From an uncultured Candidatus Saccharibacteria bacterium (GTDB lineage Bacteria; Patescibacteriota; Saccharimonadia; Saccharimonadales; AWTP1-31), in assembly GCA_964643545.1 (NCBI GenBank), contig CAZXTE010000001.1, positions 19,101 through 83,100 on the forward strand: DNA of 64,000 nucleotides, written 5' to 3'. Both the position numbers and the translations under genes were made by a program. Shown here piece after piece: positions 49,932 to 53,460 of this stretch (the first letter of the stretch is position 1; every line of letters begins with the position of its first letter). The notes beneath the pieces were generated by a model, which did not search any database, had not been told where the DNA came from, and saw only the letters and a list, made by a program, of their open reading frames with translations.

Positions 49932-50450
49932 ATGAACGAAAACAATAATCAAACACCAGCAGAAACCGTAGACTACAGTTTCATAACGGATCAACCCACG
50001 GCATCTCCAAAAAAGAAACCTAATAAAATGATCGCCATATTTCTCGGGTTGACGTTGCTCGTTATTTTGGCGGCGGGCTTACTGTTGTTAGTACAGTCCA
50101 AAAAAAGCACAACCAAAAGTAACATCGACGCAGAACAGGTCGTCCGACAACTTTTTGTAGATATGGGGAACGGGGATAATATCGCCGCCCTAAACGCATT
50201 TACGGGGCCAAATAAGCCGGATGCTGCGTACCTTGAGGGCTACTTAATAGCTCCGCTGAAGAATGATTACTTGGTAGATTCATGCACATTTACCTCTTCA
50301 GAAACAAAAGTAGCTAGCTATTACCAGGTCAAGGCATCTTGCCCACAAAAGCAAGCAAGTAACATCAGAATTCGTGTAGACTTTACAGTTATGAGACAAG
50401 AGCTATCATCGAAAATTGTTGCATACTCTCTTGGCGGGGTAGATACGTGA
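49932..50450 (+). CDS. bitopic membrane protein, candidate VirB8-like (NTF2-like ectodomain) component
   Basis: 172 aa. Cytoplasmic N-tail, a TM (MIAIFLGLTLLVILAAGLLLLV) and an ectodomain of about 110 aa beginning AEQVVRQLFVDMGNGDNIAALNAF. First gene of the pilin operon. Confidence 0.45.
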   Translation: MNENNNQTPAETVDYSFITDQPTASPKKKPNKMIAIFLGLTLLVILAAGLLLLVQSKKSTTKSNIDAEQVVRQLFVDMGNGDNIAALNAFTGPNKPDAAYLEGYLIAPLKNDYLVDSCTFTSSETKVASYYQVKASCPQKQASNIRIRVDFTVMRQELSSKIVAYSLGGVDT

Positions 50451-51433
50451 AATTGGTAAAGCGGGTTCACACCGCCGGATTAGTTATCCTATCTGTCGCT
50501 GGTCTACTTAGTGCAACATTATTCGTACATCCAAAATCGGTCCAAGCAGCCGCGCCAATATGCTATGAGCTACTCGGCAGCTCTGGTAATGATGTCCGAG
50601 TGGCTGACTGTAATAATCCCACAGTAGTTACTTTAAGAGACCAAAAGTACCCTGCTGACAAAAAATTTCTTGACGATCACTGTTACCTATATGGTGGATT
50701 TGGATTTTTCATAAAACGAGGTTTAACAGAAGTGCCGCCTGCGAGCGATGCAAATAAGAAATACACCTGTGAGTGGGCAAGAAAAGCGGCGGCTGCAGGT
50801 CAGGCAGCCGCTCCAAAATGTTACTTATTCTCTCGTGCGACGTTGGACGATTACTTTTCATTTAAATTTGCCGCTACAGATATCAAGGAAACTGCGTGCA
50901 CGCAAGAATTAAAGAATTACTACAGGTTTGTTCACAATCCTAAAGAAATAGAAAGCGGGTGGTGCTACCTATTCAGCCAAGATCATAACAACATCCAGAC
51001 ATCATGTGCAGACCTTCTTTCCAATATTGCAACTGCAGATAGTAGCGGAGGCGGGGGCGGCGGCACCTCCAGTTGCGCAAGCGATCCAACGCTTTCTTTC
51101 TGTGTGGACCTGCCGGTTAAGACCAATGATACGTGCGGCGAAGCTGGTAGCGGTACGGAAGTCCAGATATCGATCAATGTGGGATGTGTGGGCAAAGGTA
51201 ATGGCATTCTTGATCTGACCTTTGCGCTCATTCGATTTCTCTCTTATGGTGTGGGCATTGCCATGGTGGCCTCTTTAGTTGTTGCTGGCATACAGTACAG
51301 CTCCTCTAGAGGTGATCCACAGGCTACCAGCAAGGCAATAGGTCGTGCGCAGAGCACTGTTGGGGCGTTACTTCTGTTCTTGTTTATATATGCTATATTG
51401 AACTGGATAATACCCGCAGGACTCTTGAAATGA
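50447..51433 (+). CDS. Cys-rich exported protein ending in a VirB2/TrbC-like pilin hairpin
   Basis: 328 aa with a signal peptide. Two 4-Cys modules (AP.CY...C...CYL(Y/F)...C), a G6 linker and a third 4-Cys segment. Then the hairpin LIRFLSYGVGIAMVASLVVAGIQYSSSRGDPQATSKAIGRAQSTVGALLLFLFIYAILNWII. Confidence 0.6.
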   Translation: MKLVKRVHTAGLVILSVAGLLSATLFVHPKSVQAAAPICYELLGSSGNDVRVADCNNPTVVTLRDQKYPADKKFLDDHCYLYGGFGFFIKRGLTEVPPASDANKKYTCEWARKAAAAGQAAAPKCYLFSRATLDDYFSFKFAATDIKETACTQELKNYYRFVHNPKEIESGWCYLFSQDHNNIQTSCADLLSNIATADSSGGGGGGTSSCASDPTLSFCVDLPVKTNDTCGEAGSGTEVQISINVGCVGKGNGILDLTFALIRFLSYGVGIAMVASLVVAGIQYSSSRGDPQATSKAIGRAQSTVGALLLFLFIYAILNWIIPAGLLK

Positions 51434-51819
51434 CACTCCCCCTAACCTATTTTGCAGCAGCTTGTGAAGCTGGGAAAGACACCGCCGGGCAGGTGTTAAA
51501 CTTCTTTGCATTTCCTACGTGGTACAAATATCTTGAAGGGCAGACTATCACAAGTAACGGTGCCGCAGAATGTGCCCCTAAAATCACTAAGATTGGTGAT
51601 GCCTGGTTGGTGTTGGCGGCTGTTATAGAAATAATGCTACGAGTCGGTGCACTCATTGCGATAGCATTTGTTATCTATGGGGGCATATCGTTTATTACCA
51701 GCGAAGGACAGCCAGATAAAGCATCAAAAGCCAGGAGCACAGTAATAAATGCAGTTATTGGGCTGGCACTTTCGATTTCGGCATCGGCGGTAATCTCTTT
51801 CATAGCAAGGAGCTTTTAA
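51430..51819 (+). CDS. VirB2/TrbC-like pilin paralog 2
   Basis: 129 aa with 2 Cys in the head. Hairpin WLVLAAVIEIMLRVGALIAIAFVIYGGISFITSEGQPDKASKARSTVINAVIGLALSISASAVISFI. ATGA coupling. Confidence 0.6.
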   Translation: MTLPLTYFAAACEAGKDTAGQVLNFFAFPTWYKYLEGQTITSNGAAECAPKITKIGDAWLVLAAVIEIMLRVGALIAIAFVIYGGISFITSEGQPDKASKARSTVINAVIGLALSISASAVISFIARSF

Positions 51820-52140
51820 GTGACATTCAACGTATTTGCACAAACACAGCCCCCACCTACTTCACAGGTTGGTGTTTGTACTACAGATTTGTGCAACACA
51901 AATCTGCCCGCAGTGAGTGCAGGAAGCACGCAAGTGACTACGGTTTTGCAGATCTTGTTTGGAGTGGTAGCAGTGCTGGCGCTTATTTATGTCATTTTGG
52001 CAGGTTTGAAGCTCATCACTTCCAGCGGTGATCCTCAGTCAGTAGCAAAAGGACGACAACAGATACTCTTTGCAGTTATTGGCCTGACAGTTGCACTCAG
52101 CGCCGAACTAATCATTTCATTTGTAATCAACAGGCTATAA
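51820..52140 (+). CDS. VirB2/TrbC-like pilin paralog 3
   Basis: 106 aa. The GTG start abuts the previous TAA, with AAGGAG upstream. Head has VCTTDLC. Hairpin ..VLALIYVILAGLKLITSSGDPQSVAKGRQQILFAVIGLTVALSAELIISFV. Confidence 0.6.
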   Translation: MTFNVFAQTQPPPTSQVGVCTTDLCNTNLPAVSAGSTQVTTVLQILFGVVAVLALIYVILAGLKLITSSGDPQSVAKGRQQILFAVIGLTVALSAELIISFVINRL

Positions 52141-52142
52141 TC

Positions 52143-52550
52143 ATGAGAAAATTAACACTAGTTATGGCAACCGTACTAGGCAGCATGCTTTTTGCGCTGC
52201 CGAATACAGTATTTGCGGTAGATGTTTTTGGGGGGTCGGACGGTGCTTGTACACAAGCAAATACCACGGGCGAAGTTCCGGAAATATGTAAGGACACCGT
52301 GAACGCAACGGGCGAGAACCCTATAGTAGGGCCGAGTGGTATTGTCACCAAGGGTTTACAAGTACTCGTCATTGTAATCGGCATCATTGCGGTTGTGATG
52401 TTAGTAATCTCTGGGCTACGACTTATTATGTCGGGCGGTGATCCAAAAAATGCGGCCAGCGCACGAGATGGCATACTGTACGCCGGTATTGGTATAGTAG
52501 TAGTAGTGACTGCACAACTGCTGATCAACTTTGTATTAACAAAACTGTAA
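52143..52550 (+). CDS. VirB2/TrbC-like pilin paralog 4
   Basis: 135 aa with a signal peptide. Head has GACTQANTTGEVPEIC. Hairpin ..IIAVVMLVISGLRLIMSGGDPKNAASARDGILYAGIGIVVVVTAQLLINFV. Confidence 0.6.
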   Translation: MRKLTLVMATVLGSMLFALPNTVFAVDVFGGSDGACTQANTTGEVPEICKDTVNATGENPIVGPSGIVTKGLQVLVIVIGIIAVVMLVISGLRLIMSGGDPKNAASARDGILYAGIGIVVVVTAQLLINFVLTKL

Positions 52551-52558
52551 AGGAAAAA

Positions 52559-52969
52559 ATGAAAAAAATTGCCCGTTTCAGGAAAAACTTGGTAGTAGCA
52601 CTGGCGTCTGTGTTCTTCTTAGTACCGCTCTCGCCTGTTCTGGTGCATGCAGGACCATTCGACAGCGCCAAAGACGCAGCATGTAAGGGTTTAAATTTTG
52701 ACGACCCTACGGCCACGTGTGCTGCAGGCTCTAAGGACGCAGAAACAAATGCCAAGCTAAAGACGGCCGTGAATCTTTTGTCGGCTATTGTGGGTGTAAT
52801 TGCAGTAGTTATGATTATCATTGCAGGCATGAATTTTATAACTGCAGGAGGAGATTCGGGCAAAGTTTCAACTGCCAGGAATATGATTCTGTACGCTGCA
52901 ATTGGTATTGTAGTTGTAGCCCTCGCACAACTGATCGTCCGCTTTGTCTTGCAACGATTCGGGAAGTAG
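52559..52969 (+). CDS. VirB2/TrbC-like pilin paralog 5
   Basis: 136 aa with a signal peptide. Head has AACKGLNFDDPTATC. Hairpin ..VIAVVMIIIAGMNFITAGGDSGKVSTARNMILYAAIGIVVVALAQLIVRFVLQRFGK. Confidence 0.6.
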   Translation: MKKIARFRKNLVVALASVFFLVPLSPVLVHAGPFDSAKDAACKGLNFDDPTATCAAGSKDAETNAKLKTAVNLLSAIVGVIAVVMIIIAGMNFITAGGDSGKVSTARNMILYAAIGIVVVALAQLIVRFVLQRFGK

Positions 52970-53031
52970 CTGTTGTAACTTCCCTCAAAGTTGTGATATA
53001 AACATAAGTAGCAATATAGAAAGGTAAAAGA

Positions 53032-53460
53032 ATGATTAAAAAATTAAAACGTTTAGTAGTTGGCTTCACCGCTTCGGCTGCACTGTTAATGCCTTTGGCT
53101 ATACCTGTGGCTGTTCACGCGCAAACGACTGAAGACATTGGAAAGAACTTTTGTCAGGGGGCAGACATAACACTCGGTACTGGTACGGGTAGCTCTGCAA
53201 CCTGTGATACCAAAGATGCAGAAAGCAAAGTGAATACTACCGTAAAGAACTCGCTCAATCTTTTTTCGGCAATAGTTGGTATTTTGTCTGTAGTCATGAT
53301 CATTATTGGTGGTGTTAAGTACATCACCTCTGGTGGTGAATCTGGCAAGGTTACCTCAGCCAAAGACAGCATTTTGTTTGCGGTCGTCGGATTGATTGTC
53401 GTGGCTCTTGCACAACTGATCGTCCGCTTCGTCTTGCAACGATTCGGTAACCCCACCTAA
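53032..53460 (+). CDS. VirB2/TrbC-like pilin paralog 6
   Basis: 142 aa with a signal peptide. Head has NFCQGADITLGTGTGSSATC. Hairpin ..ILSVVMIIIGGVKYITSGGESGKVTSAKDSILFAVVGLIVVALAQLIVRFVLQRFGNPT. Confidence 0.6.
   Translation: MIKKLKRLVVGFTASAALLMPLAIPVAVHAQTTEDIGKNFCQGADITLGTGTGSSATCDTKDAESKVNTTVKNSLNLFSAIVGILSVVMIIIGGVKYITSGGESGKVTSAKDSILFAVVGLIVVALAQLIVRFVLQRFGNPT

Follow-up and report, generated by a model that had tools for sequence, protein, structure and literature searches.

Six tandem VirB2-superfamily pilin genes in a Candidatus Saccharibacteria type IV secretion locus as probable non-redundant parts of one structure

Why should a type IV secretion system (T4SS) carry six pilin genes in a row? 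The question is raised by a stretch of DNA from an uncultured Candidatus Saccharibacteria bacterium (assembly GCA_964643545.1, contig CAZXTE010000001.1, positions 19,101 to 83,100), hereafter the window, which comprises 64,000 nucleotides (nt) and in which all positions are counted from the first letter. A sequence-only reading had proposed that six tandem, co-oriented open reading frames (ORFs) at 50447-53460 are VirB2/TrbC-like pilin paralogs, and had added that T4SSs normally carry one major pilin, a generalization that holds for the classical systems and fails for this lineage, in which arrays of 2-11 genes have been reported. Our analysis indicates that the six genes probably form a T4SS pilin array encoding six non-redundant parts of a single heteromeric structure. 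The system in question is a chromosomal, monoderm T4SS (resembling the mating-pair formation class FATA, MPF-FATA-like) of Candidatus Saccharibacteria (Saccharimonadales). The array is already published as the known Saccharibacteria pilin array (PMC10633639, PMC12102498, PMC12857230), and reviews describe six VirB2-like pilins in Saccharibacteria; the finding is accurate, yet it rediscovers a published feature of the Saccharibacteria T4SS. In Southlakia epibionticum ML1, the genes SEML1_0014-0019 encode six PF18895 proteins of 132, 185, 103, 126, 127 and 138 amino acids (aa), all of which scored as essential by transposon sequencing (Tn-seq; PMC10633639). The positional orthology, internal promoter, gene fusions and gene conversion considered below are not described in the retrieved passages of PMC12102498.

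Re-examination confirmed all six ORFs in place and in length, each of them on the forward strand. Pilin 1 (50447-51433, 328 aa) consists of a signal peptide, a head of ~220 aa and a C-terminal hairpin. Pilin 2 (51430-51819, 129 aa) has a cysteine (Cys)-pair head and a hairpin and no signal peptide, and pilin 3 (51820-52140, 106 aa), the shortest, likewise lacks a signal peptide and has a head of ~35 aa. Pilins 4 (52143-52550, 135 aa), 5 (52559-52969, 136 aa) and 6 (53032-53460, 142 aa) each combine a signal peptide with a Cys-pair head and a hairpin. The helix-loop-helix hairpin with its loop is present in all six paralogs, the six loop motifs that had been claimed were all found in the translations, and scripted checks reproduced Cys counts of 12, 2, 2, 2, 2 and 2 and placed every Cys N-terminal to the hairpin. 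The gene junctions were also as described, namely GTGA between a 172-aa ORF and pilin 1, followed by ATGA, TAAGTG and gaps of 2, 8 and 62 nt. The further assertion that each ORF has a leader was upheld for paralogs 1, 4, 5 and 6, in which a charged n-region precedes a hydrophobic h-region with AxA-like sites, and had to be withdrawn for paralogs 2 and 3, which lack both a charged n-region and an N-terminal hydrophobic segment.

Relative to the nearest related genome, the species representative L004 (DAISWP010000001.1; 88.8% DNA identity over 22 kb), the ratio of nonsynonymous to synonymous substitution (dN/dS) of the six pilin genes is 0.03-0.14 at a dS of 0.24-0.77, and the ORFs are therefore real coding genes. 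Family membership was judged against the Pfam family PF18895 (T4SS_pilin), whose gathering score of 26.6 bits is exceeded by paralogs 2-6 (27.7, 39.3, 42.9, 50.8 and 51.2 bits, respectively). Paralog 1 remains below this cut-off at 17.0 bits; its C-terminal module aligns with PF18895-carrying homologues (P0004, P0007, P0008, P0011 and P0012), and a hidden Markov model (HMM) built from the six hairpins of the window recovers position 1 in relatives. The gathering score of PF04956 (TrbC/VirB2), 27.9 bits, is not reached in the window, where the scores are 22.0 for paralog 5, 20.7 for paralog 6 and 16.3 bits for paralog 3. Among 145 orthologues of positions 2-6 from related genomes, all 145 match PF18895 and 64 also match PF04956 (E<=1e-3, best 1.6e-8), with sporadic matches to CagC and DUF4134. 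The PF04956 matches of these orthologues support homology at the level of the superfamily and do not support strict PF04956 membership of the window proteins. Together with the VirB4, PrgI and VirB6-like neighbours, these results substantiate the proposal that the genes are VirB2-superfamily T4SS pilin paralogs, in which the helix-loop-helix is conserved and the Cys-pair heads diverge, and the profile similarity to T4SS pilin families that had been set as a check was indeed found, above threshold for PF18895 and below it for PF04956.

NCBIfam yielded only sub-threshold similarity, to a Mycoplasma integrative and conjugative element (ICE) pilin-like family. A profile of the position-6 family matched 52,363 of 1.84 billion cluster representatives at E<=1e-3. 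When a profile of the 145 pilins was compared with all PDB sequences, no solved pilin was detected, and the only hit was a chance match to haemagglutinin (E 1.6); neither structure nor sequence searches against solved structures discriminate so simple a hairpin fold. AlphaFold2 models paralog 6 at a mean predicted local distance difference test (pLDDT) of 77, with a leader helix and a head of little order, after which a turn of four residues connects two long helices (residues 60-99 and 104-138). For paralog 1, modelled from 12 homologues, the pLDDT is 41.7 and the head model is unreliable, although the two hairpin helices are predicted at residues 253-286 and 291-324; the head has no match in Pfam or NCBIfam, and its fold is not assignable from the AlphaFold2 model.

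Are the six genes recent copies of one another, or do they have separate histories? The comparison set consisted of the 80 best-matching VirB4 loci kept (VirB4 identity 81-100%), mostly from Candidatus Saccharibacteria or Saccharimonadales and a few labelled only "Patescibacteria group bacterium" or "bacterium". Synteny around VirB4 is conserved across these 80 loci, and the hairpin HMM located the pilin genes upstream of VirB4 in the loci of relatives. Exactly six pilin genes in the same order were found in 34 species-level Saccharimonadales loci with complete flanks, and seven in three. The gene at a given position has its best hit to the pilin of the same position in the window in 32/33, 33/33, 33/33, 27/33, 20/33 and 33/33 genomes for pilins 1-6, respectively; best hits of position 5 are divided between the reference position 5 (20 genomes) and position 6 (13 genomes). 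The operon spacing is conserved as well, with genes 1-5 tightly coupled in all species. These comparisons show each of the six positions to be an ancient orthogroup, with the order maintained in at least 34 species; the paralogs are therefore old and individually conserved rather than recent duplicates.

The heads are much more divergent than the hairpins, with a mean pairwise identity across species of 20-34% vs 38-61%. Analysed alone, the heads have a dN/dS of 0.05-0.10 relative to L004, and all six genes, heads included, are under purifying selection. Furthermore, two other independent metagenome assemblies contain the array with 100% identity, and a third, on a 750-nt contig, contains an identical pilin 6. 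Neither the strain-variable number or sequence nor the diversifying selection on exposed parts that would mark an antigenic or host-range array was observed.

Each position also has characters of its own. The head of pilin 1 contains its 12 Cys and four P-x-C-Y modules, ahead of a hairpin at residues ~253-324, and across species the position 1 head varies from 131 to 337 aa and from 2 to 12 Cys, mostly in even numbers. At position 2, the Cys pair brackets an aromatic stretch (C...FFGxPTWYKYL...C), while the N-terminus is a canonical signal peptide in some species and an 11-residue stub, MxxxLxxFAAAC, in the window. FFGxPTWYKYL, given as FFxFPTWYKYL for pilin 2 of the window, is the sole head motif conserved in all species examined. 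The Cys pair is retained across species at positions 2, 4, 5 and 6, with a spacing of 7-13 residues at position 4 and with exactly two Cys in 33 of the 34 position-6 orthologues; at position 3 the count is 0-2. The hairpin of position 6 is the most conserved, with a mean pairwise identity of 61% vs 38-50% elsewhere, and pilins 5 and 6 are the closest paralogues (67% hairpin identity). Pilin 6, which is the counterpart in position and size of SEML1_0019 (annotated "pilin" by NCBI and essential by Tn-seq), is regarded as the candidate major subunit.

Natural fusions provide a further view of how the subunits may be arranged. Positions 2 and 3 are encoded as one two-hairpin protein of 217-226 aa in four loci (L006:3702-4358, L042:768-1430, L044:1870-2523 and L083:529-1209, the last on the reverse strand as listed), and in two others the first gene is itself two-hairpin (L068, 2384-3319; L072, 2347-3177), as a fusion of position 1 to position 2 would give. 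Such fused arrays hold five genes. Elsewhere in the family, single polypeptides with 3-17 hairpins occur amid arrays of single pilins, including six hairpins each in P0133 (L084:1777-3435) and P0137 (L085:76-1743) and eleven in P0142; P0281 is multi-hairpin as well. Within these ORFs the linkers measure ~25-30 aa, and there are neither internal leaders nor Cys heads. A further multi-hairpin candidate, P0134, was set aside, as its exact internal duplications look like mis-assembly. The fusion of neighbouring subunits implies that these would sit side by side at a fixed stoichiometry. It also fits a topology with both termini outside, in which the head of the leaderless position 3 would form an external loop.

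The longest intergenic spacer of the array is always the one before gene 6 (median 72 nt, range 36-122). Of the 34 orthologous spacers, 26 contain the pattern TTGnnn-N13-16-TGnTA[TG]AA, where shuffled sequences predict 0.05, and in 25 of these 26 it sits 27-41 nt ahead of the start codon (6 nt in L059). Neither the 87.8 kb of pilin coding sequence searched nor any of the 34 regions upstream of position 1 contains this motif. In the window, this promoter-like element occupies 52973-53002 on the forward strand, with a -35 TTGTAA (52973-52978), an 18-nt spacer as annotated and an extended -10 TGaTATAAA (52994-53002); it is followed by a predicted ribosome-binding site, GAAAGG (53019-53024, forward strand), 7 nt before the ATG, which recurs in 31 of the 34 orthologous spacers. 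In a generic promoter and terminator scan, promoter-like sites were not in excess between 49700 and 53700, and the pilin 6 element was overlooked because the scan demands a T at the last -10 position; the motif surfaced only through the comparison of spacers across species. Gene 6 is presumably transcribed additionally from its own predicted promoter, as would suit an abundant subunit. A different element was noticed by eye upstream of position 1 in seven loci (L035, L036, L038, L039, L041, L070 and L081), where CTTGCC or CTTGAC is followed after ~17 nt by TATAGT, without the extended TG of the pilin 6 element; this suggests one operon with two distinct promoter types. A 7-bp inverted repeat, GGGAAGT ... 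ACTTCCC with a 10-nt loop, was also observed across the pilin 5 stop codon (52961-52984). It is present in L004, too, overlaps the -35 of the promoter-like element, and could serve in mRNA processing, stability or attenuation.

The 3' ends of pilins 5 and 6 had been described as nearly identical over 38 nt, and the tract was confirmed: 37 of 38 nt agree between the pilin 5 copy at 52925-52962 and the pilin 6 copy at 53410-53447, both on the forward strand. The 38-mer is found nowhere else in the window, with 0 occurrences expected by chance. Codons are identical at 11 of 13 sites in the tract vs 10 of 30 same-amino-acid codons elsewhere in the hairpin (binomial P ~2e-4, a post hoc comparison). 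Synonymous variants are shared within a genome, as both paralogues of the window carry CGATTCGG and both paralogues of L004 carry CGGTTTGG; in a longer reading, paralogs 5 and 6 of the window both have CAACGATTCGG and those of L004 both have CA(G/A)CGGTTTGG. The identical stretch reaches further 5' in L004, and in other species exact matches of 23-41 nt between genes 5 and 6 lie elsewhere in the hairpin. A conserved nucleotide element, such as an RNA structure or binding site, was considered for the 38-nt tract and ruled out, because the matches sit elsewhere in other species and the flanking synonymous variants co-vary within genomes. As for the original suggestion of gene conversion or recent duplication, the concerted synonymous changes in two genomes speak for conversion, and the antiquity of the orthogroups speaks against recent duplication. 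The comparison supports the view that pilins 5 and 6 evolve in concert, apparently via recurrent short-tract gene conversion.

The surroundings of the array contain the secretion genes to which it is linked. Divergent from the pilin operon, on the reverse strand, is the gene of a 1098-aa polytopic membrane protein (46548-49844), a candidate VirB6-like channel or assembly platform that has no Pfam match and a dN/dS of 0.04. In position and size it matches SEML1_0013 (1088 aa), whose best structural match is TrbL/VirB6 (Wang et al. Table S2, PMC10633639). The core T4SS genes are also on the reverse strand (41602-46495) and encode a 323-aa protein (45524-46495), a PrgI/VirB3-like protein (44428-45471; PrgI E 3.4e-11), a TraC-like protein (43515-44387; PF26593 according to the gene table of L001) and a VirB4-like ATPase (41602-43515; Pfam P-loop_TraG, E 1.5e-26, and AAA_10). 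VirB4, VirB3/PrgI and VirB6-like genes are thus linked here, the combination by which a T4SS locus of the MPF-FATA-like kind (Patescibacteria clade) is recognized. The Pfam scan of 48 window ORFs, which comprise most, though not all, ORFs of at least 120 aa, turned up neither a coupling protein (T4CP) nor a relaxase. Downstream of VirB4 and co-oriented with it on the reverse strand are genes of two large secreted cell-wall hydrolases (35401-41575), one of 820 aa with GH3 and NlpC/P60 domains and the other of 1248 aa with a GDSL lipase and a VanY D,D-carboxypeptidase, both with a dN/dS of 0.04-0.05; they are candidates for the remodelling of the organism's own wall (VirB1-like), for effectors or for an attack on the host wall.

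Immediately ahead of pilin 1, and constituting the first gene of the operon in this lineage, is an ORF for a 172-aa bitopic membrane protein (49932-50450, forward strand), which has a single hydrophobic segment at residues ~33-55 and whose stop codon, TGA, shares nucleotides with the GTG that starts pilin 1. A Pfam search assigned it to no family, its dN/dS relative to L004 is 0.14, and comparable ORFs adjoin position 1 only in L004, L010, L049, L061, L065, L071 and L079; it is an accessory, patchily distributed protein. It evolves fast, with 81% identity to L004 and about 25-30% to other relatives, and has a conserved N-terminal PDY-F-(I/L)-NQ motif ahead of the transmembrane segment. It was considered as a putative VirB8-like component; it has no family match and a patchy distribution, and the NTF2-like candidate of ML1 matches the 323-aa gene (45524-46495) and not this ORF.

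At its 3' end, the array is flanked by a convergent Hsp20 gene, a ComFC-like phosphoribosyltransferase gene and a tRNA-Ser gene. Between pilin 6 and hsp20 is a strong bidirectional intrinsic terminator hairpin (53478-53505), AAAAAAGCUCCGG-GUAA-CCGGAGCUUUUU, with a 12-bp stem flanked by an A-run and a U-run; the RNA has a folding energy of -24.3 kcal/mol (z = -3.7), which 0 of 200 shuffled versions matched. On the other side, the T4SS begins ~1 kb past recF, in the neighbourhood of the replication origin (28360-34355), where genes for a jag/KhpB-like protein, yidC and rnpA are on the reverse strand and dnaA (30393-31904), dnaN and recF on the forward strand, which fits the published proximity of Patescibacteria T4SS loci to oriC. 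Further away, the window contains a surface-polysaccharide cluster (147-26757) encoding RmlD/RmlA-like enzymes, several epimerases/dehydratases, a UDP-glucose dehydrogenase and GT2/GT4 glycosyltransferases, together with a Wzy-like ligase, a Wzt-type ABC ATPase and a YfhO-like protein. Pfam matched none of four large ORFs at 11440-17853, and the cluster is followed by an FG-GAP repeat protein (26876-28363).

Based upon these features, a working model can be proposed. Each gene encodes a VirB2-superfamily helix-loop-helix subunit whose small extracytoplasmic head is in most cases stapled by a single Cys pair, and the six non-redundant subunits would assemble on the VirB6/VirB4 platform into a wall-spanning conduit or a short pilus. 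The subunit that is abundant and polymerises would be that of position 6. Positions 1-3 would contribute an initiating or tip complex of low copy number in which 2 and 3 are inserted without signal-peptidase processing and the expandable, Cys-rich head of position 1 is the distal, host-facing element. The structure would probably be dedicated to exchange with the host cell rather than to conjugation, because the locus has neither relaxase nor coupling protein and the ML1 system is essential for epibiotic growth. A stricter version, in which order and stoichiometry are fixed, with 1-2-3 as initiation or tip complex and position 6 polymerising beneath it as a host-feeding conduit, is put forward tentatively and is more likely to need revision than not. 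Were it true, it would amount to a monoderm "hetero-pilus" essential for the epibiotic lifestyle, with a division of labour otherwise known only from type II/type IV (pseudo)pili. The Saccharibacteria T4SS is the first reported to be essential for its carrier and, among monoderm T4SSs, the only one to have VirB2-like pilins. The window adds no new kind of system; its comparative detail leads to predictions testable in the tractable ML1 and TM7x, namely six non-redundant positions, a 1-2-3 sub-complex, a separately transcribed gene 6 as the major subunit, and unprocessed subunits 2 and 3.

How firmly can this be held against other explanations? Both a heteropolymeric filament and a diversification of surface or host range had been offered for the six heads, and it is the heteropolymeric assembly that fits better, diversification being opposed by positional orthology and by the low dN/dS of the heads. 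In the diversification scenario, the genes would be a repertoire of interchangeable major pilins for host-range or antigenic variation, as proposed for the arrays of Bartonella and Anaplasma, and this possibility is suggested by the authors of PMC12102498. The far greater divergence of heads than hairpins (20-34% vs 38-61%), the size range of the position 1 head (131-337 aa) and the gene conversion between 5 and 6 would all be in keeping with it. However, the positions are separate orthogroups, in order, in 34 species, the copy number is nearly always six, head dN/dS is 0.05-0.10, two other independent assemblies have the identical array (and the third, 750-nt contig the identical pilin 6), all six genes are essential in ML1, neighbouring positions can be fused, and the conversion tract is in the hairpin and not the head. 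We consider a repertoire quite improbable and favour a fixed heteromeric assembly because of the orthogroups, the purifying selection, the leaderless and fused positions, the pilin 6 promoter and the 5/6 conversion. That the ORFs are chance reading frames or holin-like small membrane proteins unrelated to a T4SS is already refuted and has virtually no chance of being correct: two-hydrophobic-helix proteins do draw weak matches, such as the sub-threshold hits to DUF1634, DctQ and others, but PF18895 is above threshold in five of the six, the substitution rates (dN/dS 0.03-0.14, dS 0.24-0.77) are those cited above, the orthogroups are positional, and VirB4 synteny is kept across the 80 loci.

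The heteromeric assembly has a closer competitor in the idea that the six proteins are membrane-resident channel components and never form a pilus, their hairpins being packed into a pore or scaffold around VirB6 with the heads on the outer face. Fused multi-hairpin proteins (two hairpins in Saccharimonadales, 6-17 elsewhere) would be polytopic and could be drawn into a filament only with difficulty, a cleavable leader is missing from paralogs 2 and 3, and neither cryo-electron tomography (cryo-ET) nor isolated filaments of cultured Saccharibacteria have revealed a T4SS pilus: both pili observed by cryo-ET in Nanosynbacter lyticus were assigned to type IV pili (PMC12206443), and the solved filaments of Mycosynbacter amalyticus are unrelated immunoglobulin (Ig)-fold Pam pili. 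On the other hand, the family is homologous to the pilus-forming VirB2/TrbC, the separately promoted and most conserved sixth gene resembles a major-subunit arrangement, and the variable, disulfide-stapled heads suggest exposure beyond the membrane. Both termini are on the outer surface of VirB2 pili, as in the T-pilus and F-pilus structures, so that a tandem fusion is geometrically compatible with neighbours in a filament. On balance, membrane-resident components are unlikely, if less so than a repertoire. Several points nevertheless count against a heteromeric pilus as such. For this organism a filament, its expression and the processing of its subunits are predictions, and the promoter and the subunit roles are deduced from conservation only. 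No long T4SS pilus outside the cell has ever been observed in Saccharibacteria, the pili of N. lyticus and M. amalyticus being of other types. The Tn-seq essentiality of genes 1-5 in ML1 could in part reflect polar effects within the operon. Finally, the window's own proteins are all under the PF04956 TrbC/VirB2 threshold, and the profile search of PDB sequences detected no solved pilin.

When the array is compared with known systems, its nearest relatives are found among the Patescibacteria. Quinonero-Coronel et al. 2025 (PMC12102498) describe 441 VirB2 arrays near virB4, each with 2-11 genes, from 383 assemblies of Patescibacteria; these are most abundant in Saccharimonadia and Microgenomatia, with a low intra-array identity (~25% on average), a location near dnaA and a relaxase that is usually missing; the window fits all traits listed there and exhibits no essential difference. 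The resemblance to ML1 (Wang et al. 2023) is closer still. In both, six PF18895 genes stand in order opposite a ~1090-aa VirB6-like gene, PrgI and VirB4, positions 3-6 are similar in size (106, 135, 136 and 142 aa here; 103, 126, 127 and 138 aa in ML1), tight coupling gives way to a long spacer before the sixth gene (62 nt here, 83 nt in ML1), and the convergent Hsp20 gene, the ComFC-like phosphoribosyltransferase gene and tRNA-Ser come after the array. Unlike in ML1, position 1 has 328 aa and 12 Cys here vs 132 aa, position 2 has 129 vs 185 aa, the 172-aa membrane protein precedes the array, and a counterpart of SEML1_0011 is missing between PrgI and the 323-aa gene. Essentiality by Tn-seq applies to ML1 only, and the purifying selection on the window's six genes is consistent with it.

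Beyond this phylum, Bartonella and Anaplasma phagocytophilum similarly have tandem, divergent VirB2 genes in the T4SS locus of a host-dependent bacterium (PMC3556328 and references cited in PMC12102498). Those arrays are proposed to serve antigenic variation or the range of host surfaces; here, each position has its orthologues across species, purifying selection acts on the heads and the array has a fixed number of six genes. Like the VirB2/TrbC/TraA pilins of diderms (T-pilus, F-pilus), the window's proteins have two hydrophobic helices, a short polar loop and a conserved basic residue, are linked to VirB3, VirB4 and VirB6, and, in paralogs 1, 4, 5 and 6 only, have an N-terminal leader. Diderm T4SSs have one major pilin and a VirB5 tip, in contrast to the six subunits, Cys-pair heads, absence of VirB5 and monoderm envelope encountered here; two members in the window are leaderless, PF04956 stays below its gathering score, and any pilus here is putative. 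In type II secretion and type IV pili, the minor subunits GspH-K and PilV/W/X-FimU form a priming or tip complex. Their fold and machine are unrelated to those discussed here, as they rely on a single N-terminal helix, a prepilin peptidase and PilB/GspE ATPases. As a functional analogy only, the six pilins would resemble the minor (pseudo)pilin sets in combining, within one operon, distinct and individually required subunits of low identity, a common hydrophobic module and one abundant major subunit, positions 1-3 being modelled on the minor subunits and position 6 on the major one.

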